From a virus: a DNA stretch of 47,674 bases. The stretch's first letter is position 1; every line of letters starts with the position of its first letter. Location of the stretch: the IMG/VR virus record IMGVR_UViG_3300037589_000077, positions 1 to 47,674 of that record; one strand, written 5' to 3'. A model generated the notes under the pieces. That model worked only from the letters and a program-made list of their open reading frames with translations. It ran no database searches and was not told the origin of the DNA. This document shows, in pieces, positions 1 to 46,659 of the stretch. The translations under genes and the position numbers were made by a program.

Positions 1-127
1 AACCCGTGGGTGAGGCGCGCGACTACGCCGACCAGTTCGACGACGTCGTGGGCGTCATCGACGGGGCCGCCGGCGGGTTCGCCCGCGTGGGCGTCGACGG
101 CATCGGCGAGGGCAAGCAGCTCGGCCA
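1..127. repeat. 127-bp terminal direct repeat, identical to 47548..47674 (circularisation overlap)
   Basis: Base-by-base comparison of the first and last 127 nt shows identity. The reading frame of the 6..446 ORF is continuous with the open frame that runs off the 3' end. Confidence 0.95.
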
Positions 128-2870: not shown

Positions 2871-2961
2871 ATCCGCCTGTGGTGCCCCCGTCGTGGGGGT
2901 GGCGCAAGGGAACACCCCCGAAAACCCACCAAGTACACCCCCAAACGAAAGGAGCCTGAAA

Positions 2962-10007: not shown

Positions 10008-10105
10008 GCGAGCTCGCGTCGATGACCAAGGCGGACGCGTACACGTGGTACCGCGCCGCGCTGCTGCGCAACCGATGGTACAGGGAGATGAAGACACGTG
10101 AGTGA
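9555..10105 (+). CDS. tail assembly chaperone, -1 frameshift-extended product (gpGT analogue; shift at 9935..9941)
   Basis: After G_GGA_AAG the -1 frame stays open for 55 codons (GDGRLAERAKLLVWRDAIGCELSELASMTKADAYTWYRAALLRNRWYREMKTRE). It ends at TGA 10103..10105, overlapping the tape-measure start. Confidence 0.6.
9935..9941 (+). promoter_or_regulatory. programmed -1 ribosomal frameshift slippery heptamer G_GGA_AAG
   Basis: The heptamer is in the correct X_XXY_YYZ phase relative to the 9555 frame (codons gag-gga-aag at 9933..9941). It is identical to the lambda G/GT slippery sequence. Confidence 0.65.
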
Positions 10106-12176
10106 AGCCGAACTTAGGATCAAGCCCGTCCTCGCGGGCGTGGGGTCGTGGCGTCGCGGGATCAGCGGCCTCAAGGGCGACACGCGCGCGCTCGGGCGCA
10201 CCCAGGTCTCCGAGCTCGCGCGGGGGCGCCGGGAGGCTGCGCGCCTCGAGGGCAGCTTCGATCGGGTCGGGCGCTCGGCGCGCTCGATCGGGGACGGCCT
10301 GAAGTCGAGCCTCGGGCAGCTCGCCTCCCTGAAGACGCTCGCCGCCGGCTTCGTCGTCGGCGGCGCGGGCAAGACGATCGTCGACGGGCTGATCGGCTCG
10401 AACGCCAAGCTCGAGGCCCAGAAGATCACGTTCAACACGCTCGTGGGCGACGCCGACAAGGCCGCCGCCCTCCTCGCGCGCGTCCGTCGATACGCCGCCG
10501 AGACGCCGTTTCAGCAGGACGACTTGATCGAGGGGAGTAAGGCGCTCCTGCGTCTGACCGGGGAGAACGCCGACGAGAACATGAGGCTGCTCGAGATCGC
10601 GGGGAAGTTCGCCGCGATCAACCCTACGAAGTCCGTGGGCGACGCCGTCGAGGCTCTGCTCGACGCCGAAGGGCTCGAGTTCGAGCGTCTCAAGGAGTTC
10701 GGGATCAAGCTCAAGAAGGAGGACATTCAAAAGTACAAGGAGAGCGGAAAGACCCTGGGCGACGCCGCGCTCAAGGCCGTCGAGGCCGCGCTGACCAAAC
10801 AGACCGGCGGGCGCGACCCGGTGACCGCGCTCAGCAAGTCCTTCAACGGCAAGCTCTCGACGTTCAAGGACCAGTTCAAGGAGTTCGTGCGCAAGGGCGG
10901 CGAGCCCGCCTTCGAGGTCTTGAAGGACGGCATGGACGAGGTCGGCGAGGCGTTCGGCGAGCTCGGCGCCGACCCGGCCTTCAAGAAGGACATGGAGGAG
11001 CTGGCCGGGTACTCCGTCGAGATCGCCAAGGCCAGCGTCAGGCTCGCCAAGGAGTTCCCCGGCTTCGTGCGCGACCTGCGCAAGTTCGGCGAGGAGTACG
11101 GCGACGTCATCAAGGTCGTGGGCGGCGGCCTGCTCGTGAACAAGCTCACGGGCGGGGCCGCCGGGCGCCTGGCCGTCCAGGGCGGCGGCGCGCTGCTCGG
11201 TGGCACCATGCGCCTGGGCTCGCGTGTGCTGTTCGGCAAGAAGGGCGGGCGCATGGGCCGGGGTGGAGGGGCGCTCGGCCAGGGCATCGGCGCCGCCGGC
11301 GCGATGCCCGTCTACGTCGTGAACATGGGCGAGATGGGGGGCATGGCTGGCGACCTCTTGGGTGAAGCGGCCGAGCTGGGGTTGAAGACCTTGGTCGGCG
11401 CGGGGAGCGCCAAGGGAGCAGGCGTGGCGATGGGGTCCTACGGGATCAGCGGCTCGGGGCTCGTGGGCGTCGCTGGTGCGGGCCTGGCCGCGGGAGTGGG
11501 CGCAGGTCTGGCCACCACCGCCGCGGTGGGCTACGGCGGCTGGCAGGTCGCCCAGGCGACCGACAAGTTCAACAAGCACTTCGAGGCGCGCGCCAAGGCG
11601 GCCCAGGACGAGACGGATTGGTACAACGGCATGCGCAACTCCATGGCCTTCAAGGAGTTCACGCGCACGGTCGACCAGCAGAAGCAGGACTTCCGGCGCG
11701 ACGAGATCCGCAGCGCCGAGACCAGCCTGTTGTTCAAGGGTGGGCGCGGAGGCGGCGCGGCCGGGGCGCGCTACCGGCTCGAGAACGCCTTCCAGATGAT
11801 CGACCCATCCAACGTCTTCGAGCAGCGCGCCTTCGTCGCCCAGACCAACAACCGCCTGCGCAGCCAGGGCATCGAGGTCGACTTCGACGAGGACGGGACG
11901 CTGCTGGCCAGCGCGCTCGAGGGCGCGGGGGCGAGCGGGCGCAGGGCTGCGCGTGAGCTCGCCGAGGCCGGCTCGCTGCGACCGCAGGACTACCAGGAGT
12001 TCCAGCGCATGCCCACGGCCGAGGAGATCGGGCAGAACGTCAAGAGGGCGATGGACGGCGTGCTCTCCACGCTCGGGGTGACGGTCGTCGTCCAGGGCAA
12101 CGTGGACGCTGGCGGCGTCGGGGCCATCGAGGAGGGCGTGGGGCGCGCGCTCGAGCGCAACAGGAGCCGGTCGTGA
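10098..12176 (+). CDS. tail tape measure protein
   Basis: 692 aa. N-terminal tape-measure signature (TFNTLVGDADKAAALLARVRRYAAETPFQQDDLIEGSKALL), Gly/Ala-rich hydrophobic centre, canonical position. Confidence 0.85.
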   Translation: MSEAELRIKPVLAGVGSWRRGISGLKGDTRALGRTQVSELARGRREAARLEGSFDRVGRSARSIGDGLKSSLGQLASLKTLAAGFVVGGAGKTIVDGLIGSNAKLEAQKITFNTLVGDADKAAALLARVRRYAAETPFQQDDLIEGSKALLRLTGENADENMRLLEIAGKFAAINPTKSVGDAVEALLDAEGLEFERLKEFGIKLKKEDIQKYKESGKTLGDAALKAVEAALTKQTGGRDPVTALSKSFNGKLSTFKDQFKEFVRKGGEPAFEVLKDGMDEVGEAFGELGADPAFKKDMEELAGYSVEIAKASVRLAKEFPGFVRDLRKFGEEYGDVIKVVGGGLLVNKLTGGAAGRLAVQGGGALLGGTMRLGSRVLFGKKGGRMGRGGGALGQGIGAAGAMPVYVVNMGEMGGMAGDLLGEAAELGLKTLVGAGSAKGAGVAMGSYGISGSGLVGVAGAGLAAGVGAGLATTAAVGYGGWQVAQATDKFNKHFEARAKAAQDETDWYNGMRNSMAFKEFTRTVDQQKQDFRRDEIRSAETSLLFKGGRGGGAAGARYRLENAFQMIDPSNVFEQRAFVAQTNNRLRSQGIEVDFDEDGTLLASALEGAGASGRRAARELAEAGSLRPQDYQEFQRMPTAEEIGQNVKRAMDGVLSTLGVTVVVQGNVDAGGVGAIEEGVGRALERNRSRS

Positions 12177-13902: not shown

Positions 13903-13934
13903 GAGTGAAGAGGGCCCGGTGCGTAGGCGTTCGG

Positions 13935-13963
13935 TTGGTGTTAAAGTTCACCTTCAACACCAA
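13935..13963 (+). promoter_or_regulatory. hairpin / inverted repeat TTGGTGTT-N13-AACACCAA just upstream of the lipoprotein RBS
   Basis: Perfect 8-bp arms read from the sequence, located in the AT-richer spacer between the spike gene and the moron. Confidence 0.3.
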
Positions 13964-13978
13964 CCATACGGAGGGAAC

Positions 13979-14620
13979 GTGAAGCACTGGATGGCATTCA
14001 TTCTCATGCTGATGGCGCTCGTCGTCGGGTGCGAGTCGAGCATGGACAAGGCGAATCGGCAGGCTCGCGAGAAGCAGGCTCGTCAAGCGGATGAACTCCG
14101 AGAGTATGAGAGGCAACGCAAAGAGAAGCGCGCCAAGGAAGCATCCGAGAGGCGCCTCACTCCCAGCATCTATCCTGACATGGTGCCTGTCTTTAGGGGG
14201 GAACAGGCCGTGGAGGACTTCCTGAAGCGAAAAGGGGCCCTCCAGGGCAAGCTCTCGCTGAAGAAGGCGTACAAGGAGTATAGCCTCTATGTTTGGCCCA
14301 ATGGCTCCAGAATCGAGGCAGAAGGAGGCGGAGACATCGTCAAGGTCAAGCGTCGCGACCACGGCGTCAGTGACTATGAGTATGGGTATGTCCCTGCGAG
14401 CTGGGTCGTTGCCGCTCCCTACCCGAACGAGAAGGACATCGAGCGCATCGCCGAAGATGAGCGGATCAAGACCATGGAGTGGCTGGAGAAGCATGCGTCG
14501 GAGAAGAAGGGGCGCTCATGCTGCAAGTTTTGCGAGAACGGCAAGGCATGTGGCGACACCTGCATCCCACGCAATCGAACGTGCACCGATGGCCGTGGGT
14601 GTGCGTGCAATGCTTGGTGA
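13979..14620 (+). CDS. moron-encoded lipoprotein with a Cys-rich C-terminal motif
   Basis: GTG after GGAGGG. N-terminus VKHWMAFILMLMALVVGC is a signal peptide plus lipobox. Lys/Glu-rich body. C-terminus CCKFCENGKACGDTCIPRNRTCTDGRGCACNAW. Codon usage is visibly AT-richer than the flanks. Confidence 0.65.
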   Translation: MKHWMAFILMLMALVVGCESSMDKANRQAREKQARQADELREYERQRKEKRAKEASERRLTPSIYPDMVPVFRGEQAVEDFLKRKGALQGKLSLKKAYKEYSLYVWPNGSRIEAEGGGDIVKVKRRDHGVSDYEYGYVPASWVVAAPYPNEKDIERIAEDERIKTMEWLEKHASEKKGRSCCKFCENGKACGDTCIPRNRTCTDGRGCACNAW

Positions 14621-16195: not shown

Positions 16196-17425
16196 ATGTC
16201 CATCGCCCTGCCCGAGCTCGACGCGCGCGACGAGGACGAGGTCGTCGCCGACGTGGTCGACGCGCTGCCTGACGAGCTCACCGACCGCAACCGCTCCTCG
16301 CTCGCGGTCAAGCTCGTCGAGGCCATCGGCGCCTACTACGCCAAGCTCCTCTTCGCGATGGCGCAGATTCCCGACCAGCTCGAGCTCAAGCTGCTCGAGC
16401 TGCTGGGCATCACGCCACAGGCCGCCACGTCGGCGACGGTGACGGTGACGTTGACGACGGGCGGGGGCTCGGGCGCGGTGACCGTGCCTTCCGGGACGCT
16501 GGTGCGCGCGGGGGTGGGCGAGGAGGCCGTGACGTTTGCGACCGACGCCGACGTCGAGGTCCCGGGCGCCGGAGGCACGGCCGACGTGGCGGCCACCGCG
16601 CTCGTCGCCGGCGCGGCCGGGAACGTCGGGGCGGCGAGCATCGACACCCTGGTCACACCGGTCGCAGGGATCGCCTCGGTGACGAACGCCGCGGGCGCCT
16701 CGGGAGGCCAGGACGTCGAGCTCATCGCCCAGACGCGTGCGCGCGCCGCGCTCGAGGTGCGCGCGCAGCAGCGCGTGGTGACCGCCGAGGACGCCGAGGT
16801 CTTCGCCGCCGGCGTCGCCGGGGTGGCCAGGGCGCGCGCGATCGGCAACACCTACACCGACGGCGTCTCGGGGCTCACACTCGGCGCCGGGTCGATGACC
16901 GTGGGGATCGTCGCCGAAGACCTCAACGAGTCGGCCTCGTCCGCGCTCGTCGAGGCGGTTGGCGTCGAGCTCGTCGCGCGCGCCTTCCCGGGGGTGAACT
17001 TCTCCGTCTTCCAGCCCACCGTGCGCCTGGTGTGGATCTCGTACGTCCAGGCCGAGCTGCTGCCCGGCGTGGACGAGGCCGACGTGCAGGCGGCCATGGT
17101 CGACGCGCTCGAGCTGTACCTGAGCGCCACCGACGTCTTCGACGCCGACGGGGTGACGCTGCTCGGGGAGGGCTGGCGCTGGGGTGAGCCGATGTACCGC
17201 AACGAGATCATCAGCCTGCTCGACCGCGTCGAGGGCGTGCGCCGCATCGTCGCGGCGACCTACTACATCAGCGACGACTACGGCGCCGACTGGGGGACCC
17301 CGTTCGCGCTCTCGGCCGACGTGGCCGCCGGCGCGGGGTCGGCCGACCTCGTGGGGAACTTCGGGCTGCTCCACCTGGGCACCGAGTACTCCCCGCCCGG
17401 CGCGCTCACGCTCGACGTCGTCTGA
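16196..17425 (+). CDS. baseplate J-like protein (gp6/gpJ)
   Basis: 409 aa. ATVTVTLTT...VTVPSGTLVRAG...ADVAATALVAGAAGNVGAASIDTLV...IASVTNAAGASGGQDVE. Confidence 0.85.
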   Translation: MSIALPELDARDEDEVVADVVDALPDELTDRNRSSLAVKLVEAIGAYYAKLLFAMAQIPDQLELKLLELLGITPQAATSATVTVTLTTGGGSGAVTVPSGTLVRAGVGEEAVTFATDADVEVPGAGGTADVAATALVAGAAGNVGAASIDTLVTPVAGIASVTNAAGASGGQDVELIAQTRARAALEVRAQQRVVTAEDAEVFAAGVAGVARARAIGNTYTDGVSGLTLGAGSMTVGIVAEDLNESASSALVEAVGVELVARAFPGVNFSVFQPTVRLVWISYVQAELLPGVDEADVQAAMVDALELYLSATDVFDADGVTLLGEGWRWGEPMYRNEIISLLDRVEGVRRIVAATYYISDDYGADWGTPFALSADVAAGAGSADLVGNFGLLHLGTEYSPPGALTLDVV

Positions 17426-24770: not shown

Positions 24771-25188
24771 GCGGCGCAACGCGTGCGGCACCAGGCTGAT
24801 CGAGGACCTGCCCTGCGAGGTGTGTGTCTCCGAGGAGGTCAACGTCGAGTGCGCGCGACGCGCTGGCGTCGACGCCGCACGCGCGAAGGCCGACCAGGAG
24901 CGCGCCGCGGCCATCGGCGCGCGCGACACCGCGCGCGAAGGCGAGGAGAAGGCCAAGGCCGAGGCGCGCCGGCTGCGTGACGAGCTCGAGCGCGAGCGGA
25001 TCGCGCTCGCGCTACGCCCCCCGCCGGCGCGCGTCGCTGGCGCCACGCTCATGGGGTCAGGCGGCGCGGGCATCGCCGTCGCCCTCGTGCGCCTGGGGAT
25101 GACCGGCGAGCTCGACGTCGGGCTCGTCGTCGTCTCCGGGGTGCAGCTCGTCGGGGGCGGGCTGGTGTGGTGGTGGGGCGGGGAGTAG
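24667..25188 (+). CDS. secreted or lipoprotein-like protein with a C-terminal TM anchor (unimolecular-spanin-like topology)
   Basis: GTG 6 nt after GAGG. N-terminus VKTTTPRRALIATLLMLTCSTSTAAAQ (signal peptide with Cys). Charged helical middle. C-terminus GAGIAVALVRLG...LVVVSGVQLVGGGLVWWWGG. Confidence 0.4.
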   Translation: MKTTTPRRALIATLLMLTCSTSTAAAQEGDPPTRERRNACGTRLIEDLPCEVCVSEEVNVECARRAGVDAARAKADQERAAAIGARDTAREGEEKAKAEARRLRDELERERIALALRPPPARVAGATLMGSGGAGIAVALVRLGMTGELDVGLVVVSGVQLVGGGLVWWWGGE

Positions 25189-25392
25189 CTCGAGTTGAGG
25201 AGGCGAGTTGCGTGCGGCGAGCCACCTGTCGATGACGGCCTCGCACAGCTCGAGCGCGCGCGCGACTTCGGCGCGCGAGCGCGCGTCCTCACCTGCGCAC
25301 ATCAGGGCGACCTCCATGATCCCGGGGTGCTGAGCAGGGTGTGCGCGGCGGCGCGGCGTTGCGGGCGAGCTCGTCTTCGTGTTGGGCGTCAT
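25057..25392 (-). CDS. small HTH-like protein (very uncertain extent)
   Basis: ATG at 25392 after GAGG. Internal SRAEVARALELCEAVIDRWL looks like a helix-turn-helix. Its 3' end would overlap the convergent plus-strand gene by about 130 nt. Confidence 0.25.
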   Translation of the reverse strand: MTPNTKTSSPATPRRRAHPAQHPGIMEVALMCAGEDARSRAEVARALELCEAVIDRWLAARNSPPQLELLPAPPPHQPAPDELHPGDDDEPDVELAGHPQAHEGDGDARAA

Positions 25393-25720
25393 GGGGTACC
25401 TCGACGTCTTCGGTGGTGTCGACCCGGCACGGCGTGCGCCGGGTCCGTGCGGAGGTTCTCGGCGCCTGGGTGCGTAGCGTTGCGTCTGTCACGCCAGGTC
25501 GCCAACCCGAACGCTGGCGCGGCACCAGGCACCACACCTCGAGCTCGGAGTCGGGCGCTTGGACGACGCGCACCTGGGCGCCGTCCCACTCGCCGGTGGC
25601 GACGTGACGGCCGCGATCGTCGGGCTCGGGGTCGCTCGTGAGGTAGAGGGGGCGACGGCACCAGGGGATCATGTCGCCGGCGCGCATGAGCTCGAGGGCG
25701 TCGAGGCGGATGCAGTGCAT
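25289..25720 (-). CDS. hypothetical protein
   Basis: ATG at 25720, 7 nt after GGAGGA. The first ~70 aa look protein-like; the C-terminal third is Arg/Pro-rich and may be shadow ORF. Confidence 0.35.
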   Translation of the reverse strand: MHCIRLDALELMRAGDMIPWCRRPLYLTSDPEPDDRGRHVATGEWDGAQVRVVQAPDSELEVWCLVPRQRSGWRPGVTDATLRTQAPRTSARTRRTPCRVDTTEDVEVPHDAQHEDELARNAAPPRTPCSAPRDHGGRPDVRR

Positions 25721-25780
25721 GGGTGGGTCCTCCGAGTCGGGTTCTCGGAGGGGGAGAGGTCGCGGGGGCGGGAGGTTGGC

Positions 25781-26506
25781 TTACTCGTCCTCAGGTTCGG
25801 GAGGTAGAATGGGGGCTCGTGTGTTCCCCGCCCTGGCCTTCATGGCTTGGACGCGCGTCAGGAACGCGGCCTGCTCTTGCTTGCTCACGAAGTAGTGATC
25901 GATGGCCTCCAGGACAAGGTCCCACGCAAACTCAGCGTCTTCGCGCTCGACACCAATGAGTTCACCCGTGGTCATGTCCGTAGAGCTGTGGGCACCGAAG
26001 TTGCCAAGGTTTCGGATCGCGTCCACGCCTTGCCTGATCGAGTACGGTTCATGCTCCATCTCGACGTACTTCTCGATCTTGTCGACCAACCGACCGCGCG
26101 CGAGGCCGGTCACCTCATCGGCCAAGATCGACTCGAGCAGCCTGCGACACATGACCGCCGCGGCCACCGGCGAAACCTTCAACACGAGATAGGTCTGGCG
26201 CAGCAGCTCGTGGTATTTCGCTGGAACTTCTTCCGGAACGATATAAGCGTCGTCGGCGTTCGGCCAAACATGGACCCTCTTGGACGACTTCGTTAAGACA
26301 TTCGTCCCGTTGGCGGGGGCCTGCAGCACTTCGGTAAAAACGCCTCCACACGCAGGACACTTCAATGTGTGTGAGACACGAGAAAGTGTTTGGGCGCCCT
26401 TTCTTTCGATCGTCACCGACTTACCCCAAGGCACTCCAAGCTTGAAAGTTATGCTGCAATGCGGACATGGGTGGTATTCGTATGCTGGTCTTGCTTGTTG
26501 TGCCAT
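25781..26506 (-). CDS. zinc-ribbon + DUF4145-like protein (paralogue A)
   Basis: ATG after GAGGAGGAAAGAG. CPHC...CPAC N-terminal ribbon. C-terminal AAVMCRRLLESIL...GRLVDKIEKYVEME...VDAIRNLGNFGAH...DAEFAWDLVLEAIDHYF pattern. AT-richer codon usage than the backbone. Confidence 0.8.
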   Translation of the reverse strand: MAQQARPAYEYHPCPHCSITFKLGVPWGKSVTIERKGAQTLSRVSHTLKCPACGGVFTEVLQAPANGTNVLTKSSKRVHVWPNADDAYIVPEEVPAKYHELLRQTYLVLKVSPVAAAVMCRRLLESILADEVTGLARGRLVDKIEKYVEMEHEPYSIRQGVDAIRNLGNFGAHSSTDMTTGELIGVEREDAEFAWDLVLEAIDHYFVSKQEQAAFLTRVQAMKARAGNTRAPILPPEPEDE

Positions 26507-26585
26507 CTCTTTCCTCCTCGGTTAATCACCGCGCAATAGCTTCGTGCAGAAGACGCCACCGGCGGGATCGCTAGCTTGGTTCTGC

Positions 26586-27362
26586 CTACTCGGTTGGCTC
26601 AGGCGGCAGGATCGGAGCCTTGGGGTCGATGGGGTTCTTGGCGGCTTTCATCTCGGCAACCCTCCTCATCAACTCAGCGTGTTCAGCCGCTTCGATGAAG
26701 TAGTGGTTGATGAAGGACACGGCGACCTTCCAGGCAGTCTGGGCCTCATCGCGAGTCACCGAGATCACATCACCTGAGGTCTTCTCCTCGGAGGTGTGCG
26801 CACCGAAGTTGCCCAGGTCCCGGATTGCGTCGACCGTCTTTCGCAGATGTCTGGGCTGGTCTTCCATCTCAACGTACTTCTCGATCTTGTCCACAAGCCG
26901 CCCTTTCTCCAGGCCGGGCACTTGCTTGGCGAGGATGTCCTCGACGAGGCGGCGACATAGGACCGCGGCGCCCTCAGGAGCCACCTCCAAGCTCGCGTAC
27001 GTTTGCTTAAGCAGTCCGTGGTAGCGCTCAGGTACGCTCTCGTGGGGCATGTAGAACGCCTCAGGGTTTGGCCAAACCGCAACCCTTTGAGGAAGTGCGG
27101 TCAAGACGTCAGCTACGGGCTCATCATATGAAGCGCTCAAGGGCCTCCCGATCACGGCCCTGACGATGTCGACAAAGACCTCTCTGCAGTTTTGACACGT
27201 AAAGGTCTTCGCGCCCACGCATTCGTAGCGTCGAATACCTTTGAGCTCGTCATCGACGATCGAATCGGTGTGAAGATCATTGGTTTCCATTTCTTGATGG
27301 TTCATCACACCACAATGAGGACATTTGTGGTAGTTGAGCGCGTTCGTACTCTGCTTCGACAT
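26586..27362 (-). CDS. zinc-ribbon + DUF4145-like protein (paralogue B)
   Basis: ATG at 27362, 5 nt after AGGAGGG. CPHC...CQNC ribbon. AAVLCRRLVEDIL...GRLVDKIEKYVEME...VDAIRDLGNFGAH...INHYF. Colinear with paralogue A, including the APILPPEP tail. Confidence 0.8.
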   Translation of the reverse strand: MSKQSTNALNYHKCPHCGVMNHQEMETNDLHTDSIVDDELKGIRRYECVGAKTFTCQNCREVFVDIVRAVIGRPLSASYDEPVADVLTALPQRVAVWPNPEAFYMPHESVPERYHGLLKQTYASLEVAPEGAAVLCRRLVEDILAKQVPGLEKGRLVDKIEKYVEMEDQPRHLRKTVDAIRDLGNFGAHTSEEKTSGDVISVTRDEAQTAWKVAVSFINHYFIEAAEHAELMRRVAEMKAAKNPIDPKAPILPPEPTE

Positions 27363-27400
27363 CTCATCCCTCCTATGGGTTCGTTGGTTCCAAGCCCGGC

Positions 27401-27409
27401 ATTCTACCA
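27401..27409 (-). promoter_or_regulatory. extended -10-like element TGGTAGAAT (minus strand) about 40 nt upstream of the paralogue B start
   Basis: The plus strand reads attctacca. It is flanked by 7-bp inverted repeats (GGTTCGT 27378..27384 / ACGAACC 27413..27419). Confidence 0.3.
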
Positions 27410-27616
27410 CGCACGAACCAAGCCAACACAGTCACCCCCGATGTTCTCGTGGTGGCTCTCTCGGCTGTCTTATCCAACGGTATAGAACTCTAGATCGTCG
27501 TATCTGTTCGGGTGCGCTCGCGACGCTCATGCACCGCGACTTCATCGGCCAGATCCATCGGCTCGCCCTCCATGCCCCATCTCTCTGTGTGGTCTTCTTG
27601 GTCATGCTCACGCCCC

Positions 27617-27652
27617 TCGTGTACACGAAGGGGCCCGTTCGTGATCACGAAC
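27617..27652. promoter_or_regulatory. two related palindromes: TCGTGTACACGA (27617..27628) and GTTCGTGATCACGAAC (27637..27652)
   Basis: Perfect dyads read from the sequence. Shared core TCGTG-ww-CACGA, with centres 22 bp apart. The second overlaps the stop codon of the 27645..28103 gene. Confidence 0.5.
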
Positions 27653-28103
27653 TGCTGAACACCCGTCCACTGAACACGACCCGCACGTACGAGCCGTGTT
27701 CGCTCACCCCCCAGGTCTCCTCGCCGCGCGCCTCGAGCGCCGCGCGGATCACACCGACCATCGGGACCTCCCAGGGGGTGATCTTCAAGACCCGCGGCGC
27801 GACGACCTCGAGCGCGGCGACCTGGTTGAGCGGCACGACCTGGCCGTAGTACTCCACGCGCACCCCGTCGAGTTCGACGATGAGCTCGGGGCTGTACTGC
27901 ACCCGCTCGACCGTCACGCGGTACACCCTCTCGTCGTCGAGCTGGCGGCCCGCTTCTGAGCGTCCGTCGAGCTCGACCTCGAGCGCGCCCCAGGGGTTCT
28001 CGCCTGACGCGGACTCGAAGATCCAGCGCGCGTCGGTGTCGATGCCTCCGATGCACCGCGCTGTCATCTCGAGCTCGAGCACCTTCTTCGCCTTCTCGCT
28101 CAT
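27645..28103 (-). CDS. hypothetical protein
   Basis: 152-aa ORF. ATGA overlap with the upstream gene. Balanced composition. Confidence 0.55.
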   Translation of the reverse strand: MSEKAKKVLELEMTARCIGGIDTDARWIFESASGENPWGALEVELDGRSEAGRQLDDERVYRVTVERVQYSPELIVELDGVRVEYYGQVVPLNQVAALEVVAPRVLKITPWEVPMVGVIRAALEARGEETWGVSEHGSYVRVVFSGRVFSSS

Positions 28104-28450
28104 CGCCTCTCCTTCCTGTCGATGTTGAACACGCCCTCGTACACCTCCTCGCCGTCCTCGGGCTCAGGCGACGCGCGCGGCTTCGCCTCGCGCTCCTCGA
28201 GGTAGGCGATCCTGTTGAGGATCGACGTGCAGTCGAACGCCGCAGTGATGTTCCAGCCCCCGTCGGGGTGCTTCTTCGCGTTCAGGACCTCGCCCGTTGG
28301 TCCGCCTCCGCGCGACCACAGCCGCACGCGATCGGACGTCGGGGGTCGCGGCCGGCGCAGCGTGAGCGTGATCTCGTCGCCGCCGAGCCCGGTGAGTTCG
28401 CGGCGCGCGCGCACGCGCTCGATGGCCTCACGTAGTTCGTCGTGGGTCAC
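28100..28450 (-). CDS. hypothetical protein
   Basis: GTG at 28450 overlapping the upstream TGA (GTGA) and preceded by GGAGGG. 116 aa. Confidence 0.5.
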   Translation of the reverse strand: MTHDELREAIERVRARRELTGLGGDEITLTLRRPRPPTSDRVRLWSRGGGPTGEVLNAKKHPDGGWNITAAFDCTSILNRIAYLEEREAKPRASPEPEDGEEVYEGVFNIDRKERR

Positions 28451-29483: not shown

Positions 29484-29740
29484 GAGCCCTCCTCGAACAC
29501 GCGCGCCACCAGGCGCCCCACGTCCACCACCACCGACACCATCCCGTCGTCGAGCTCCTCGACGGTGACCAGGTCCTCGACGCCGAACGCCAGCAGGACC
29601 TCGTGGAGAGGTCGCCCCAGCACGAGTTGCTCGTCGATGGCCACGAGCAACTCGTCGGTCACGTCCTCGGCGAGCCCGAACCAGGGGTCGTCGGGGTCGG
29701 GCTGTCCGGAGCGCTCCGGGATGATGCGGTGGAGGGTCAC
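29480..29740 (-). CDS. hypothetical acidic protein
   Basis: GTGA overlap with the stop of the ParB-domain gene. 86 aa. Confidence 0.5.
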   Translation of the reverse strand: MTLHRIIPERSGQPDPDDPWFGLAEDVTDELLVAIDEQLVLGRPLHEVLLAFGVEDLVTVEELDDGMVSVVVDVGRLVARVFEEGS

Positions 29741-32064
29741 TCGGCCGCCCCCTCGAGGGCGTCGGCGCCGTCGGCCTGGTCGCTGGTGACGCCCGCGCGC
29801 TCGAGCCTGGCCAGGACCTCCTCGGGCTCGAGCACGTGCGCGAAGACCCGCTCGGCGAACGCGCCCAGCTCGTCGGCCGGCAGTCCGGAGACCCACCGCC
29901 CGAGCGACTGCACGCGCGCATATTTCGAATCCCCCGTAACCGCACCTTCGGGCACGAGCTCGAGCGCGACGTCCCGGGTCTGGTGGTCACGCGTGAGCCA
30001 CTCGCGCAGCGCCAGCTCGACGACTCCAAGCGCGCCGGCGGGCGCGACCTCCCATACCTCGAGCGCGCGCTGGCGCTGCTCGCGGCGCGCCTTCTTCGCC
30101 TCCTTCGCCGCCGCCCTGCTGGCCTTGGTCGCGCGCCCCGTGATCTTCGACCACAGCGCTTCGTCGCGCGCCTTGACCTCAGCGAGCGCCTGCGCCTTGA
30201 ACATGTAGACGTCGACGTCGAGGCTGTTGGCATAGCCCCACACCCTCGCTCTGGCGTAGCGCGCCGTCTCGGGCGCGACCTCCTCCCACGTCATGCCTCC
30301 GTTGCTGTAGAGGGCGCTCGAGTCCGCGCGCACGATCGTGTTGCTCTCGTACTCCTTGCTGTCCTCGAGGCGCATCTGTTCCACCACGCCCCACACCTCG
30401 ACCCCACGTTCATCAGCCAGAGCCTTGGCGGCGTTGGCTTCGAGCTCGGCGACCTTGTCCGACCAGCACGCCGGGTCCAGGCACCGGTCCCCCTGCTCGG
30501 CCCCGGGCAGCAGCGACGCCTGCGCGCTCGAGCGCATCGGGCACCCAACGCACGCGCGCCGGCACCCGAGCTGCTCGTCCAGCTCCCACGGCGCACGCGA
30601 GAGGTCGCGCGTCTCGCGCGTGATCGCCTCGTCGACCTGGTCACGCGACCACGACTTCGGCTGCCCCGACCCCTGCCACCCCGACGTCGACGCCGGGTCG
30701 AGCTGGCCACCGGGGGAGCACAGCGCGCGCTGGAGCTCGGCGGGCAGGCGCGCCACGGCGAGCGCCGACCCCAGCCCGATGCGCCCCGCGGCGACGAGCT
30801 CGCGCGCGCCGTCCCCCAGCCCCGCGAGCTGGACGCGCTCGCGCACGTAGCGCACCGGGCGCCCCAGCCGCGCGGCCAGGTCGTCGAGCTCGCGCCCGTG
30901 CTCCTGGACCAGCGCGGCCAGCCCGGCGGCCTCCTCGAGCGGGTCCGGGTCCTCGCGCTGGTTGTTCTCGATCACCGCGATCTCGAGCGCCTCGGCGTCG
31001 GTCAGCTCGCGCACCAGCGCCGGGATCGTCTTGAGCATCGCGCGGCGCGCGCCGCGCACGCGCCGGTGCCCTGCCACGATCTCGTACCTCCCCGCCTTCT
31101 CGCCTGGCCGCACGATGATCGGCTCGAGCACGCCGTAGGACTGGATCGACGTCGCGAGCTCGCTGAGAGCGTCGTCGTCGTAGGTCTGGCGGGGGTTGCG
31201 CGGGGAGTCGTCGAGCGTGACGAGCGCGAGCTCGACGAGGCCGCCAAGCGCCGGCGTGTCGAGCACCACGACCGGGTGCCCCTCGGGCTCGACGTCCTCG
31301 ACGGGCGCGACGTCGCCGGCGCGCGCCCGCTCGAGCGCGCCGATCTCCTCCTCGTAGAGCTCACGCCACCCAGACCGCGGCGTCTCGGGCGCGGGCAGGT
31401 CGAGGACCTCGGCGCCTCCCTGGCGCCAAAACACCCCGTCGAGGCCCAGGGTGTTGACCACCACGCGACCCACCACCTGGTCGCCCACGACGTACCAGAC
31501 GACGTCGCTCTTCTTGACGTCCTCGGGAGGCGCCTTCGCGGTCGTGAACCCGGCGGGCGGCCCGGCCAGCGTCTCGACGAGCTCGGCGCCCAGCTTCTTC
31601 GACACTCGCGCCACGTAGTGCTTCGCGCCGCGGGTGCGCGGCGTCTTCGTCGTCCCCGCCGCCTTCGACTGCTCCTCGATGACGTCGAGCAGGACCTCGA
31701 ACCACTCCTTCTTGTGTGCGTCTGCCCAGACCGAGTCCACCTGATCGACGTCTTCGTCGTCGACCACGGGTCGACGCGAGGGAGGGATGATCCACGAGTC
31801 CTCGTGCCATTCGATGTGCGCGGGGTCGGACCCCTCACGCGGCACCTCGCGTGTCACGACCGCGCATCCGACGACCACCCAAGACCCCTGACCCTCCGGG
31901 GTCTTCGAGATGAACCATGCGTAACGGCCCTCCTCAGAGTCATAGGGCAGCTTCCAGCTAAGCAGCGACCAACGCCCAGGGTTGAGCTCGCTCTTGCCCT
32001 GCAGCTCGCCGAGCAACGACGCGCGTCTGTCGCTGCCCACCTTGATGACCATGTCCATCTCCAT
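29737..32064 (-). CDS. large ParB/Srx N-terminal-domain protein with a Cys cluster
   Basis: ATG after GAGGTGGTAAG. 775 aa. Central IVAGHRRVRGARRAMLKTIPALVRELTDAEALEIAVIENNQREDPDPLEEA (ParB box). Downstream CRRACVGCPMRS...GDRCLDPACW. Confidence 0.8.
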   Translation of the reverse strand: MEMDMVIKVGSDRRASLLGELQGKSELNPGRWSLLSWKLPYDSEEGRYAWFISKTPEGQGSWVVVGCAVVTREVPREGSDPAHIEWHEDSWIIPPSRRPVVDDEDVDQVDSVWADAHKKEWFEVLLDVIEEQSKAAGTTKTPRTRGAKHYVARVSKKLGAELVETLAGPPAGFTTAKAPPEDVKKSDVVWYVVGDQVVGRVVVNTLGLDGVFWRQGGAEVLDLPAPETPRSGWRELYEEEIGALERARAGDVAPVEDVEPEGHPVVVLDTPALGGLVELALVTLDDSPRNPRQTYDDDALSELATSIQSYGVLEPIIVRPGEKAGRYEIVAGHRRVRGARRAMLKTIPALVRELTDAEALEIAVIENNQREDPDPLEEAAGLAALVQEHGRELDDLAARLGRPVRYVRERVQLAGLGDGARELVAAGRIGLGSALAVARLPAELQRALCSPGGQLDPASTSGWQGSGQPKSWSRDQVDEAITRETRDLSRAPWELDEQLGCRRACVGCPMRSSAQASLLPGAEQGDRCLDPACWSDKVAELEANAAKALADERGVEVWGVVEQMRLEDSKEYESNTIVRADSSALYSNGGMTWEEVAPETARYARARVWGYANSLDVDVYMFKAQALAEVKARDEALWSKITGRATKASRAAAKEAKKARREQRQRALEVWEVAPAGALGVVELALREWLTRDHQTRDVALELVPEGAVTGDSKYARVQSLGRWVSGLPADELGAFAERVFAHVLEPEEVLARLERAGVTSDQADGADALEGAAE

Positions 32065-35022: not shown

Positions 35023-35643
35023 TCAGCCCTCGTTCTCGCGCTCCTCGCGCCTCGCCTCGATGACCGCGAGCTCGGCCTTGAGCCGCTCGAGCTCGCTCGC
35101 CGTCGACTTCGCCACGAACCGTGGCTTGTGCGTCGGCGCGTCGAGCGCCGGCAGCCCTGCGCGCTGGCGCACCAGGTGCGCCTCGCGGTTGTACGCCTCG
35201 TAGCCGGGCACATCCTCGCCCCATACCGTGCCCAGCAGCGCGAGCCGCGCGACCCGCTCGCGCTCGTCACGGATGAGCGCACGCACCTGGGCGTCGGCGA
35301 CCACCATCCGCCTGCCGTCCTCGGTACGCTCGTAGGTCAGCCACGCTCGCGCCTGCCGCACGCTCATCCGGCCGATGTTGCCGAGCAGGTCCACCACCTC
35401 GACCACCTGCCGGCTCCCGTTGCCCACCGCCCGGCACGCCACCGTCTCGAAGCTCCCCACGCCCTGGGGCGTGCGCCGCGGCCGCACGATGTGCCACGCC
35501 CGCGTGTCGCTCCCCTTCACCTTCTTGCGCGTCAGGTAGTCCACCACTGTACACCTGTGCGGCGATCGCGCCTTGATCGCATGCGATCGCGACTGCTCGA
35601 TCGCGTCGCGAGCGTTAATCTCTTTCACCCCTGGTGCGACCAT
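35023..35643 (-). CDS. first gene of the leftward early operon, hypothetical
   Basis: ATG after GAGGTGGTAAG. 206 aa. Divergent from the XRE repressor gene. Confidence 0.55.
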   Translation of the reverse strand: MVAPGVKEINARDAIEQSRSHAIKARSPHRCTVVDYLTRKKVKGSDTRAWHIVRPRRTPQGVGSFETVACRAVGNGSRQVVEVVDLLGNIGRMSVRQARAWLTYERTEDGRRMVVADAQVRALIRDERERVARLALLGTVWGEDVPGYEAYNREAHLVRQRAGLPALDAPTHKPRFVAKSTASELERLKAELAVIEARREERENEG

Positions 35644-35705
35644 CTTACCACCTCTTGACTGGACATGTGAGCAGCGCTGAACTCTTGAGCAGATTCCGTG
35701 ACTGC

Positions 35706-35733
35706 TTGCCGCGCCCTATGACATGACTATAAT
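35706..35733 (+). promoter_or_regulatory. rightward sigma70-like promoter TTGCCG-16 nt-TATAAT
   Basis: Hexamers at 35706..35711 and 35728..35733, read from the sequence in the AT-rich divergent intergenic region. Confidence 0.35.
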
Positions 35734-35758
35734 GTCATTGACTTCAAAAGCAAGTCAA
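35718..35758. promoter_or_regulatory. two abutting 21-bp dyads: ATGACAT-N7-ATGTCAT (35718..35738) and TTGACTT-N7-AAGTCAA (35738..35758)
   Basis: Perfect 7-bp arms. Extra half-sites AAGTCAA at 35773..35779 and TTGACT at 35655..35660. TGACTCGAAA is repeated at 35760..35769 and 35828..35837. Confidence 0.5.
35726..35753 (-). promoter_or_regulatory. leftward sigma70-like promoter TTGCTT-16 nt-TATAGT (minus strand)
   Basis: -35 at 35753..35748 and -10 at 35731..35726. The -10 overlaps the rightward -10 by 4 bp. Confidence 0.3.
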
Positions 35759-35889
35759 ATGACTCGAAAAAGAAGTCAAGGGTTTGCGTCCGTCCGAACG
35801 CGGCCTTCGTGGTGGTAGAGGTGGCTCTGACTCGAAATCGGCGCCACGGTTGCAGAAAACGAGTCTGATATGCAGGAATCAGATCAGCG

Positions 35890-36180
35890 ATGGAGAAGCA
35901 CGCAATGGAGAATGCACACGACATGGCCAGCATCAGCAAGAAGCTCGGGCGCCTACTGGCAGCCCAACGCACCATCAGGGGGTGGAGCCAGCGGGAGGCC
36001 GCGAAGCGGTCGGAGGTGCTGACGTTCGCGCACATCCAACGCGGCGAGGCCGGAGGGGCGCTCACGCTCGAGCGCATTCAGGAGTTCGCAGACTTCTACA
36101 ACCTGAACTTCCTCGAACTCATCGAGGAAGCTCACGAACTCGACCTCGACGATGAGGACGAAGAGGAACTAGCCGCCTAA
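35890..36180 (+). CDS. XRE-family helix-turn-helix repressor (cI/Cro-like)
   Basis: LGRLLAAQRTIRGWSQREAAKRSEVLTFAHIQRGE is a classic HTH_3 pattern. Acidic tail. An alternative in-frame ATG at 35905 has a better SD (GGAGAA). Confidence 0.8.
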   Translation: MEKHAMENAHDMASISKKLGRLLAAQRTIRGWSQREAAKRSEVLTFAHIQRGEAGGALTLERIQEFADFYNLNFLELIEEAHELDLDDEDEEELAA

Positions 36181-36256
36181 CCACCACCCACGGGCACGCG
36201 GCGGCTACCACCACATCGGTCGCCGGGTGCCTGACACCACCACGGACGGACCCACC

Positions 36257-37072
36257 ATGTCAGCACAACCCACGGGGACCGAGAGCGCGGAGGACTCGCC
36301 TCCGCTGCTGCGGGACCCCTGCGTCATCGCCATCGTCGCCCAGAAGGGCGGCGTGGCGAAGACGACCACGACCGTCAACCTGGCCGCGGCGCTCGCCTCT
36401 CGCGGCCTGCGCGTCTGCGTCATCGACCTGGATGCGCAAGGCTCGGCCTCGAAACACCTGGGCGTCTACGACCCGGACCCGGGCGAGTTGCTCGACGCGC
36501 TCGAGCGTGGCGATGGTCTCGAGGCCCAGGAGGCCGCCGCCGGCGTCGACCTGGTCGCGGGAGGAACCCGCCTGCGCGAGCTTGACCGCCACGCTGGTGA
36601 CGACTCCGAGGTCGAGCTCGAGCGTCTGATCGAACGCTCTCGCCTGGGCGGCTCGTTCGTCTACGACGTCGTCCTGATCGATACGCCGCCCCACCTCGGG
36701 CTCGCGACGCGTTCTGCGCTCGCCGCGGCCGACTGGATCATCACGCCGTTGCAGGCCCAGCCCGGCGGCATGGAGGGTCTGGTGCAAACGCTCGAGTTCC
36801 TGGAAGCGCAACGCGATTTCATGGCCGCGCGTCATCTCGGGACGGTCATTACCTTCCACGACCGACGCAGCTCGCTTTCGGGCGAGGTCATCGAGCTGGT
36901 CGACGGGTTCGCGCGCGCGGCACGCTTCGGAGTGACCATCCCCACCAACGTCGCCGTGGCGCGTGCGTCCGGACAGGGCGTCCCGGTCGTAGCCCAGGAC
37001 GCGCGCGCCGCCGGCGCGCGCGCCTATGAGCAGCTCGCCGACGAGGTGCTCGGGAGGCTCGCCGATGGCTAA
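36257..37072 (+). CDS. parA: ParA/Soj-type partition ATPase
   Basis: Deviant Walker A IAIVAQKGGVAKTTTTVNLAAALA, then VCVIDLDAQGS and VLIDTPP. An alternative GTG start lies at 36227. Confidence 0.85.
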   Translation: MSAQPTGTESAEDSPPLLRDPCVIAIVAQKGGVAKTTTTVNLAAALASRGLRVCVIDLDAQGSASKHLGVYDPDPGELLDALERGDGLEAQEAAAGVDLVAGGTRLRELDRHAGDDSEVELERLIERSRLGGSFVYDVVLIDTPPHLGLATRSALAAADWIITPLQAQPGGMEGLVQTLEFLEAQRDFMAARHLGTVITFHDRRSSLSGEVIELVDGFARAARFGVTIPTNVAVARASGQGVPVVAQDARAAGARAYEQLADEVLGRLADG

Positions 37073-38144
37073 AAGCAAACCGATCCGCGACCCCTTCAGC
37101 GAGATGGCTTCGCGCGCCTCGTCGGACATGGGCGCGCTCTCGCAGATGAGGACCGATGGCGGCACGCAGCCGCGCGCCGAGCTCGACTCGACGCTCGTCG
37201 AGGAGTACGCCGAGCGAATGAAGTACTCGGCGACCGAGGAGTGCATCGTGGACCCCGACGGGACACCATGGGAGCCGATCACGCTGTACAAAGATGGCGA
37301 CGTCTTTTGGCTGGCCGATGGCTTCCACCGGCGTGAGGCAGCACTTCGCGCCGGACTCGAAACCTTCCAGGTCCGCGTGAAGAACGGCGACCTGCGCGCC
37401 GCGGTGCGCTTCTCGCTCAAGGCGAACGCGCGCCACGGCAAGCGGCGCACGAACGAGGACAAGAGGCGAGCGGTCACGCGCGCGCTCAAGGACCCGGTGT
37501 GGGGCTCGTACTCGAACCGTCGCGTCGCCGACATGTGCGGGGTCTCGGACCCCTTCGTGATGAAGGTGCGCGCCGAGCTCGAAGCCGACGGCGTGATCGA
37601 GCCTGCGCTCGAGCGCGTGGGCCTGGACGGCGAAGTCGTCGACGTCAAAGCTCACACCAGGCGCATCAAGGCCGGGCTGTCGAAGTCGACGCCGAAGGCA
37701 CCGCCAAAGGAGGAGCTAATCGTTAGCACCCCGGCGACGCCCGCTGCCGAGGAGGACCTCGGAGATGCGACCTTGCAGCTCCCGCCTGGTCTGCCGCGCG
37801 TGACGTTCAAGGAGCTTTCCAAGGTTGAAGACGACGCCCACGGCGCCCTGCTCGCCGCGCCGAACGGGTGGAGCGACCTGCGTGCGCTTCACGAGGACGG
37901 CCTTCGCGTGGCGCGCGCCGTGCTCTACCCGCTCGGCCAGGAGCGCGCGCTCGTCGAAGGCGTGAGCGTGTGGTTCAGCGCGATGCGTGAGAACGAGGTC
38001 CACGTGGTCCACCGTGCGCTCGCTGAGGGCACGGTTCTGGTCATCTCGCGCGAGCGCATCGGCGCGCTCACCGGCACGACCCTCGAGGAGCTCGCCGCCG
38101 AACTCGGCGAAGGCGATGCGGCGCGGGTGGGAGGTGGCGCGTGA
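37065..38144 (+). CDS. parB: ParB/Srx-domain protein (partition partner candidate)
   Basis: ATG at 37065 overlaps the parA end by 8 nt. WLADGFHRREAALRAG (DGxHR) and KANARHGKRRTNEDKRRAV motifs. Confidence 0.75.
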   Translation: MAKSKPIRDPFSEMASRASSDMGALSQMRTDGGTQPRAELDSTLVEEYAERMKYSATEECIVDPDGTPWEPITLYKDGDVFWLADGFHRREAALRAGLETFQVRVKNGDLRAAVRFSLKANARHGKRRTNEDKRRAVTRALKDPVWGSYSNRRVADMCGVSDPFVMKVRAELEADGVIEPALERVGLDGEVVDVKAHTRRIKAGLSKSTPKAPPKEELIVSTPATPAAEEDLGDATLQLPPGLPRVTFKELSKVEDDAHGALLAAPNGWSDLRALHEDGLRVARAVLYPLGQERALVEGVSVWFSAMRENEVHVVHRALAEGTVLVISRERIGALTGTTLEELAAELGEGDAARVGGGA

Positions 38145-45987: not shown

Positions 45988-46044
45988 GCGGCACGGCGCC
46001 GATGCGATTTTGGCGCCGATCCCCCTACGGGTAGAGAGGTGGTC

Positions 46045-46659
46045 ATGGTCGAGGACGGGTCAAACGAGGGCGTCGAGGAGCTGCTGGCGAAGCTGTCGCC
46101 GAAGTGGCGCGCGTTCGTGTTCGAGTACGTCAAGGACTTCAACGGCGCGGCCGCGGCCCGGCGCGCGGGCTACGCCGCAAAGTCGGCGCGGAACACGGCG
46201 TGGAAGCTGCTGCGGGACCCGGGGGTCAAGGCGGCCATCGAGGCCCACCTCGATGAGTACGCGATGAGCGCGGCCGAGTGCGTCAAGCACCTCGCGGACT
46301 GGGGGCGTGGGACGATGGGTCCGTTCCTCGACGATCACGGCCACACCGACCTGACGAGTGAGAAGGCCAAGGCCCACATCAAGCTCGTCAAGAAGATCAC
46401 CGAGACGCGACGCTACATCAAGGACGAGGACGGCGAAGACGTCCTCGAGGTCAAGCTCGCCCTCGAGCTCCACGACGCCAAGGACGCGGTCAAGGAGACG
46501 CTGCGCATGCACGGCAAGATCGTGGACAGGGTCGAGGTCGGCGTGGACGCCGACGCCGCCACGATCGCCGCGCTGCTGGGTGTGCGCCTGGAGGACGATG
46601 GCGGGGACGATGGCGAGGACCTCGAGGGCTTCGACGACGAGCTCGGGCTCGGGGACTGA
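46045..46659 (+). CDS. terS: terminase small subunit
   Basis: ATG 5 nt after GAGAGG. WRAFVFEYVKDFNGAAAARRAGYAAKSARNTAWKLLRDPGVKAAIEA is a Terminase_2-type HTH. Directly upstream of terL. Confidence 0.75.
   Translation: MVEDGSNEGVEELLAKLSPKWRAFVFEYVKDFNGAAAARRAGYAAKSARNTAWKLLRDPGVKAAIEAHLDEYAMSAAECVKHLADWGRGTMGPFLDDHGHTDLTSEKAKAHIKLVKKITETRRYIKDEDGEDVLEVKLALELHDAKDAVKETLRMHGKIVDRVEVGVDADAATIAALLGVRLEDDGGDDGEDLEGFDDELGLGD

Follow-up and report, generated by a model that had tools for sequence, protein, structure and literature searches.

We analyzed two adjacent genes, here called geneA and geneB, in a phage sequence of 47,674 nucleotides (nt) from IMG/VR (record IMGVR_UViG_3300037589_000077; "the window" denotes this whole stretch). 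The reading that we favor, with a probability of about 0.62, is that these genes encode divergent RNases of the RAZR (ring-activated zinc-finger RNase) family, which were acquired horizontally as a moron by a myovirus with ParA and ParB genes, and which would act by RAZR-like abortive infection through two independent sensors. The evidence obtained here consists of the domain architecture, the conservation of motifs, homology to an experimentally validated family, purifying selection on both genes, and a foreign base composition. The kind of defence gene is known; the novelty is modest, and lies in the strong divergence and the duplication of a RAZR-type module and in its carriage by a high-GC phage that also has partition genes.

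Relationship of the two proteins to RAZR

RAZR was found as PD-T7-4 by functional selection in E. coli in 2022 (Vassallo et al., PMC9519451), and was renamed by Zhang et al. (Nature 2026, PMC13017515), with homologues from E. coli UMB1727 and Klebsiella variicola. Its N-terminal part is a Cys4 zinc-ribbon domain, and its C-terminal part is a DUF4145 domain, a divergent HEPN RNase in which the substitutions R146A and H154A abolish defence (PMC13017515). A RAZR 24-mer assembles around ~170 Å rings of the phage portal or of the putative recombinase Gp77, and ring-bound RAZR cleaves single-stranded RNA (ssRNA) non-specifically, aborting infection (PMC13017515). Variability in RAZR is highest in the zinc-finger domain, and swapping this domain between the two homologues largely inverts their defence spectra (PMC13017515). 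The fusion of a zinc ribbon with DUF4145, including in double-stranded DNA viruses, was catalogued in 2013, together with fusions of DUF4145/HEPN to restriction endonucleases, helicases and AbiJ-NTD (PMC3710099). The original prediction for this locus, which was made from the sequence by itself, held that such proteins had not been characterised as a system; this was wrong, given the listing of the fusion in 2013, the validation of PD-T7-4 in 2022, and the mechanism published in 2026.

Open reading frames (ORFs) and the family alignment confirmed that both minus-strand genes encode the predicted four-Cys ribbon (CPHC...CxxC) and the motif IR.LGNFGAH. A hidden Markov model (HMM) search with Pfam DUF4145 (PF13643), the family named in the original prediction, scored 48.0 bits for geneA and 40.9 bits for geneB, both above the gathering cut-off of 23.1. 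In the PADLOC part of the suggested DefenseFinder/PADLOC comparison, the PD-T7-4 model (PDLC04109) was the sole match of each protein (E 6.2e-8 for geneB and 4.6e-4 for geneA), and the match covered profile positions 12-157 of 211, which comprise the zinc finger and the HEPN domain. Both proteins also matched phrog_1305, labelled 'DNA binding protein', over their full length (geneB, E 2e-23; geneA, E 4e-18). Together with the invariant Cys and R-x7-H residues given below, the Pfam and PADLOC matches show that the proposed architecture of zinc ribbon and DUF4145/HEPN is real.

When a profile of the pair was run against 1.84 billion representative sequences (exhaustive HMMER search), it matched 1651 clusters at E<=1e-3 and 635 at E<=1e-10; at E<=1e-30 the two self hits alone were returned, and the best foreign match had an E-value of 4.8e-27. 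Identity to any foreign protein in this set was ~30% at most. Nearly all of the best 150 matches were 210-260 amino acids (aa) long, with two CxxC motifs and R..GN...H at ~150-170. A word-indexed search of 5.8 billion proteins returned solely the window's own shortened gene calls. The two proteins share 20-30% identity with other members in an alignment of 82 sequences, in which the four Cys, P98, R137, L156, R181, G184, N185 and H189 (geneB numbering) are invariant; all four Cys, R137, R181, G184, N185 and H189 are present in both copies.

The 82-sequence profile matched PDB entry 9y9c (E 1e-21), in which a 219-aa 'DUF4145 domain-containing protein' is present 24 times; CPHC aligned on CPHC, and the R..GN...H columns aligned on RIVGNQAVH, i.e., R146/H154 of the chain. 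We identified this chain with RAZR on the grounds that R146 and H154 occupy the positions of the published catalytic residues. The linker between the two domains (geneB 92-111, in which P98 is invariant and P111 near-invariant) aligns with RAZR 61-80, and is 50% identical between the paralogues. Furthermore, a 96-aa piece of the RAZR chain (tblastn) and geneB matched the same genes in the lysogeny modules of temperate Streptococcus phages (SM1 gp7, PH15, IPP16 and Javan115/326), and these shared matches are an independent transitive link, at the level of sequence similarity, between the window proteins and RAZR. Judged by profiles and motifs, the pair forms a deep, isolated branch of a broadly defined RAZR/PD-T7-4 family, and the two proteins are not close orthologues of RAZR.

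The window proteins resemble RAZR in the order of their elements (a Cys4 zinc ribbon starting with CPHC, a conserved linker, and DUF4145/HEPN), in the R-xxGNxxx-H motif that aligns to R146/H154 in both, in size (241 and 258 aa versus 219 aa), in having the zinc-finger domain as the most variable part, and in carriage by a mobile element. They differ in the length of the zinc-finger domain (~80-97 aa versus ~60 aa), in forming a tandem pair instead of a single gene, and in having a probably actinobacterial high-GC host instead of an enterobacterium. Other DUF4145/HEPN conflict proteins, such as BxaP (PMC10799925) and EXM25_05825 of a phage-inducible chromosomal island of M. abscessus (PMC10465359), share the domain, the defence context and the mobile carriage, but these proteins and the DUF4145 fusions of PMC3710099 have other N-terminal partners, none with a Cys4 ribbon sensor.

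An AlphaFold2 (AF2) model of geneB was built from the 82-sequence alignment, since a 2-sequence alignment gave a poor model (predicted local distance difference test, pLDDT, of 57). The resulting monomer (pLDDT 84.5, predicted template modelling score 0.67) has a beta-rich N-terminal domain, with strands within 11-97, and a helical C-terminal domain at 112-242. The HEPN-fold check suggested in the original prediction bore out at the level of the domain, with weak E-values: Foldseek matched 1wol (probability 0.87, template modelling (TM) score 0.61), 1ufb (0.82, 0.59) and AbiV, and HEPN proteins were the sole PDB matches with high probability and a sensible root-mean-square deviation. A Foldseek search of BFVD gave one unnamed match only. 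The model places a long helix after the predicted HEPN domain, followed by a proline-rich tail (Table 1); the corresponding C-terminal part of RAZR is unmodelled in the cryo-EM map (PMC13017515). As a separate observation, the family consensus ends in a basic AGKPPxK tail, and the window pair has instead an acidic proline tail, APILPPEP(T/E)E.

Old duplication and the low-GC island

Full-length identity between the two proteins is 45% (BLASTP, E 1e-72). BLASTP and the alignment confirmed the ungapped colinearity that had been noticed, which spans geneB residues ~86-241, as well as the identical 14-aa block GRLVDKIEKYVEME and the common tail APILPPEP. The divergence is uneven: the zinc-finger domains share 32% identity with 16 gap columns and saturated synonymous sites, whereas the HEPN cores share 62% identity without gaps, with a ratio of nonsynonymous to synonymous substitutions (dN/dS) of 0.24 and a dS of ~1.4, which is likewise saturated. 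These values indicate that the duplication is old, that both copies are under purifying selection, and that the sensor diverged most. The same contrast holds across the family, in which the mean frequency of the top residue is 0.24 in the zinc-finger domain, the most variable part, and 0.57 in the HEPN domain.

Each gene has the strong ribosome-binding site (RBS) that had been predicted, read from the sequence as AGGAGGG (5-nt spacer) and GGAGG (6-nt spacer). The true start of geneB is the ATG at 27362 and not the GTG at 27410, because the RBS precedes the ATG and an extended -10-like element, TGgTAGAAT, overlaps the GTG. Public (JGI) gene calls of both genes begin at internal codons: P0001 (234 aa) starts at M25 and has lost the first CxxC (C14/C17), and P0002 (182 aa) starts at V60 and has lost the entire zinc ribbon. 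The longer readings are correct because family-invariant cysteines lie upstream of the public starts, and the database entries therefore resemble bare DUF4145 proteins.

To place the tandem arrangement within the family, the family HMM was run over all ORFs of 103 other loci, among which a tandem pair of zinc-ribbon-DUF4145 genes was found at one (~1%). The loci comprised 17 IMG/VR contigs, 80 loci from genomes of very diverse phyla, two Streptococcus phages, and four metagenome fragments that are non-independent because all carry one protein; the count is biased towards the RNIGNFAAH subgroup because the genome loci were retrieved with a 17-sequence subset. The single other pair (L043, 5146-6678, plus strand) lies in a Desulfomonilaceae metagenome-assembled genome (JBKQRG010000327.1), and its upstream gene (CSQC...CQGC, RFLGNQAVH) is of a far more divergent type than its neighbor. 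Thus, the two-gene arrangement does recur elsewhere, as had been asked, but it is rare. The accompanying idea of a two-component system found no indication, given that RAZR is a single-gene system and that both copies keep all invariant residues; since each copy alone has the complete architecture, the pair may simply be two single-gene systems.

A phage moron in the sense of Hendrix is an autonomous accessory cassette of distinct composition that has been inserted among backbone genes and brings a promoter and a terminator of its own. The pair lies in an island in which the GC content is 0.46-0.63 across ~25800-27650, as against ~0.70-0.75 on both sides, with sharp edges in a 120-nt profile. 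The codon usage is AT-richer than the backbone, as had been noticed, with a GC content at third codon positions (GC3) of 0.69 and 0.70 for the two genes, of 0.81-0.99 for the flanking genes and of 0.85-0.97 for the backbone; both measures mark the pair as foreign to the backbone. No other family member comes nearly as close to either gene as its partner does, and both genes have a non-backbone GC3, which suggests that they were acquired as one unit from a lower-GC donor lineage that is so far unsampled. In addition, a 1433-bp fragment from a second metagenome sample (L025, JGI sample 3300037602), which was excluded from the tandem survey, is 100% identical to window 26142-27574, i.e., the leader, geneB and the start of geneA, and represents the same phage or the same cassette in that sample.

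The island looks like a moron, and by its sequence features it is likely to be expressed autonomously. A tentative promoter upstream of geneB (Table 1) was read from the sequence and was unreported by the consensus scan, its spacer being too short. A hairpin on the upstream side (fold z -1.9, without a U-tract) might possibly insulate the pair from the leftward operon, and a hairpin past the geneA stop, more stable (z -2.8, 1/200 shuffles as stable), is also without a U-tract and absent from the terminator scan. No significant structure was found in the 79-nt spacer that separates the genes, and an Rfam search of 25000-28300 gave no match. The leader at 27363-27470 (minus strand) folds at -42.1 kcal/mol (z -3.5, 0/200 shuffles as stable; no Rfam match), and, should the promoter guess hold, the greater part of this leader would be untranscribed.

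Table 1. Coordinates of the features discussed. Positions are those of the window unless stated otherwise.
Feature	Position	Strand	Remarks
geneA, downstream paralogue	25781..26506	-	241 aa; shorter, divergent zinc-ribbon domain, otherwise architecture of geneB
geneB, upstream paralogue	26586..27362	-	258 aa; ORF extends to 27410
geneB, Cys4 zinc-ribbon sensor domain (predicted)	residues ~10-97		followed by the linker
geneB, DUF4145/HEPN RNase domain (predicted)	residues 112-203
geneB, long helix	residues 204-242		followed by a proline-rich tail
geneB, first CxxC, C14-P-H-C17	27312..27323	-	invariant in 82-sequence alignment; aligns with CPHC of 9y9c
geneB, second CxxC, C56-Q-N-C59	27186..27197	-	invariant in 82-sequence alignment
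geneA, first CxxC, C14-P-H-C17	26456..26467	-	from family alignment and paralogue comparison
geneA, second CxxC, C50-P-A-C53	26348..26359	-	from family alignment and paralogue comparison
geneB, predicted HEPN catalytic motif R181-DLGNFGA-H189 (R-x7-H)	26796..26822	-	columns coincide with RAZR R146-IVGNQAV-H154
geneA, predicted HEPN catalytic motif R165-NLGNFGA-H173	25988..26014	-	same alignments as geneB motif
Low-GC island, moron-like	25781..27644		~1.85 kb: 282-nt non-coding leader, geneB, 79-nt spacer, geneA
Tentative promoter, TTGGCT, 14 nt, (TGg)TAGAAT	27401..27426	-	extended -10-like; 39 nt upstream of geneB ATG; read from sequence
GC-rich palindromic hairpin, possible terminator	27612..27634	-	11 nt past stop of upstream backbone gene; inverted repeat I4
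8-bp GC-rich hairpin CCUCCGAG/CUCGGAGG, possible terminator at module end	25729..25751	-	begins 30 nt past geneA stop
Portal	466-1860
Major head protein	2893-3861
Tail sheath	7481-9004
Tape measure	10098-12176
Baseplate	16196-17425
Second ParB-like protein	29737-32064	-	775 aa
XRE-type helix-turn-helix (HTH)	35890-36180	+
ParA	36227-37072
ParB-like	37026-38144	+
Small terminase	46039-46659
Large terminase	from 46665		runs towards the junction
Family gene of Streptococcus phage SM1	3866-4546 of locus L001		annotated 'DNA binding protein'

Carrier phage and phage-borne relatives

The first 127 nt of the window (1-127) are identical to the last 127 nt (47548-47674), and the window thus represents a complete genome of ~47,547 bp, circular or terminally redundant, in which the large-terminase ORF seems cut because it runs into the repeated end. 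No integrase was found among the ORFs scanned in the window, and no tRNAs. The original prediction of a phage-plasmid is plausible given ParA, two ParB-like genes, the circular contig and the lack of an integrase among the scanned ORFs, although these features fall short of proof; a temperate lifestyle with plasmid-type maintenance is thus plausible for this myovirus-type phage. Relatives of the capsid protein among GenBank phages share <=30% identity, and 18 of 19 records are actinobacteriophages. Together with the GC content of 70%, these sequence data weakly suggest an actinobacterial host, and the host is probably a high-GC organism of this kind.

The pair sits distally in a leftward (minus-strand) gene block that starts near 35640. 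Its placement at the junction with the lysis/structural arm was roughly right, in that it lies near the convergence with the plus-strand structural/tail-fibre block, but two further small minus-strand ORFs intervene. Among ten other proteins of the window, PADLOC detected no additional defence gene.

Several neighboring features were noted in passing. Directly upstream of the pair, an ORF of backbone composition (27645-28103, minus strand, 152 aa) has a partial match to Pfam RRF (ribosome recycling factor; residues 78-142 against profile 18-81 of 164, 37.9 bits, gathering score 29.7) and no PHROG or PADLOC match; an RRF-like fragment encoded beside putative translation-targeting RNases is curious. 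The 775-aa ParB-like protein has a central ParB/nuclease-like domain (~280-450) between large unannotated N- and C-terminal regions. A low-GC stretch at 35650-36180 (0.57), between a leftward 206-aa ORF (35023-35643) and the rightward XRE-type HTH gene, is probably the genetic switch and, with ParA/ParB following, the partition locus of the element. A second low-GC patch (0.59 at 14001-14500) lies within the tail-gene block, where an ORF at 13919-14620 (plus strand), if read from an internal Met, yields a lipoprotein-like signal, MAFILMLMALVVGC; this ORF has a Cys-rich C-terminus, CCKFCENGKACGDTCIPRNRTCTDGRGCACNAW, and no Pfam or PADLOC match, and by its sequence it is possibly another moron, e.g., a surface-exclusion lipoprotein.

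Family members were found on 17 IMG/VR contigs. The phrog_1305 proteins of Streptococcus phages (SM1 gp7, PH15, IPP16 and Javan prophages), which are annotated either as 'DNA binding protein' or as hypothetical, resemble the window pair in their full-length match and phage carriage; they differ in sharing ~25% identity with it, in occurring as a single family copy per phage (hmmsearch), and in belonging to low-GC Firmicutes hosts with integrase-based instead of partition-based lysogeny. SM1 gp14, which is also labelled 'DNA binding protein', was considered as a second family copy and rejected, since it did not match the family HMM. In SM1 and IPP16 the family gene shares a strand with the integrase and repressor genes, and the early genes next to it are on the other strand; the remaining Streptococcus phage matches lie near prophage ends. 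Placement on the integrase/repressor strand is the classic layout of accessory genes expressed in the lysogen. Phage carriage is normal for this family, and prophages are recognised as major carriers of systems of this kind: 12 of the 21 systems in the screen that yielded PD-T7-4 lay in intact prophages (PMC9519451). Given the RAZR homology, the PHROG label 'DNA binding protein' is probably misleading for this family.

Proposed mechanism and alternatives

By analogy with RAZR, the two genes would be expressed in the carrier state, and each protein would rest as an inactive oligomer in cells carrying the phage. A large ring protein of a superinfecting phage, e.g., its portal or a recombinase ring, would be bound by the Cys4 zinc-ribbon domain, and the protein would polymerise around this ring. 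HEPN dimers would thereby be positioned as active RNases, their composite R-x7-H sites would cut RNA non-specifically, translation would stop, and the infection would abort. The two copies may be independent sensors with different trigger ranges, which would widen the exclusion spectrum, because the zinc-ribbon domain sets the specificity of RAZR and diverged most between them. A role in abortive infection or exclusion, as originally proposed, is the best-supported function because the architecture and the catalytic motif match an experimentally validated antiphage protein, whereas the counter-defence role offered as an alternative was without support.

Several observations weigh against this proposal. 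A single-sequence phmmer comparison with the RAZR chain gave E 0.18 for geneB, which is not significant, and no match for geneA, so that similarity is seen at the profile level only and homology rests on profiles and transitivity. At 20-30% identity to other members, the specificity and even the mode of activation could differ. The full-length AF2 model had no significant Foldseek match in the PDB, and 9y9c was not among the top hits. The architecture does not fix the mechanism either: DS-38, an antiphage protein validated by DefensePredictor, likewise combines a zinc finger and HEPN in one polypeptide, as judged by its description, but its HEPN domain alone aligns with PD-T7-4, and its zinc finger is of a different type and is thought to be used differently (10.1101/2025.01.08.631726). 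Consensus scans for promoters and terminators found nothing relevant at the island, and autonomous expression is therefore a conjecture. Finally, variability in the presence of the island could not be demonstrated here because no sister phage was found in GenBank, IMG/VR or metagenome scans: megablast of 20-34 kb against GenBank phages returned none, scans of IMG/VR with two flanking proteins gave one unrelated match to a C-terminal domain (on a 437-kb contig) for one protein and none for the other, and 18 loci found in a metagenome scan with the 775-aa ParB-like protein, as well as the 437-kb IMG/VR locus, shared the ParB domain alone (tblastn with 33 window proteins).

Among the alternatives, an obligate hetero-oligomer, in which the paralogues co-assemble as mixed zinc-finger/HEPN dimers or as an alternating ring and function only together, is unlikely but has several points in its favor. 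The genes are adjacent, probably co-transcribed across the short unstructured spacer, and were kept together through an old divergence; their best-conserved stretches lie in the HEPN core, as could be the case with a HEPN interface common to both; dimer and higher-order contacts are also how RAZR works (PMC13017515); and the rarity of tandem pairs (1/103) means that this pair may be special. However, both copies keep every invariant catalytic residue and zinc ligand, so that there is no sign of subfunctionalisation into catalytic and non-catalytic subunits, each gene has its own strong RBS, and RAZR and ~99% of the surveyed relatives are single genes. It is a still more doubtful suggestion that the pair forms a heteromeric RAZR variant that co-polymerises on rings of other symmetry or diameter, or on two surfaces, or that one copy is a decoy or regulator that silences the other against the phage's own portal. 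We also consider it rather improbable that the RNases serve the element itself, either as an addiction toxin (post-segregational killing) for a ParA/ParB episome or as an RNase that the phage's own portal triggers late in infection, for host shutoff or self-timing. HEPN domains often serve as the toxin in toxin-antitoxin modules (PMC3710099), partition functions are encoded in this genome, portal rings activate RAZR-type proteins (PMC13017515), and this phage makes a portal of its own; yet the island contains no antitoxin-like partner, whether an MNT or a small adjacent ORF, the neighbors have no such Pfam or PADLOC matches, the foreign composition marks an accessory gene and not a core function, and validated family members act against other phages.

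The PHROG/RefSeq label of phrog_1305 and SM1 gp7 would make the proteins zinc-ribbon DNA-binding regulators, in line with the full-length match to phrog_1305 and with the position of the Streptococcus phage homologues among repressor and antirepressor genes. This is very unlikely: the label appears to be inferred from the zinc ribbon alone, the RAZR HEPN fragment matches the same Streptococcus genes, and R-x7-H is invariant in a family whose characterised member, RAZR, cuts ssRNA and not DNA. Least credible is that a duplication was acquired horizontally and that its genes now persist as decaying remnants without function. Their atypical composition and the absence of close relatives in very large databases would fit decay, but both frames are intact with strong RBSs, all family-invariant residues are kept, the HEPN-core dN/dS is 0.24 despite saturated synonymous divergence, and an identical copy of the region is present in a second metagenome sample.

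For divergent RAZR-family RNases acting as two sensors, which is the reading that we prefer, the consequences are as follows. Until now, the ring mechanism of RAZR has been demonstrated in two closely related proteins of enterobacteria, and the present locus adds to the family a very distant branch, carried by a high-GC and probably actinobacterial phage that has plasmid-type partition genes. A practical point is that automatic gene prediction removed part or all of the zinc ribbon from both genes. The locus also raises the question of how a phage that builds a portal carries portal-sensing suicide RNases without killing itself, and the heteromer or decoy variant, if true, would be a solution to the self/non-self problem of phage-encoded portal sensing. 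Altogether, two copies that diverged long ago lie side by side, their RNase domains conserved and their sensors far apart; they constitute a natural experiment, and comparing the triggers of the two copies would test whether divergence of the zinc finger sets specificity across the family.

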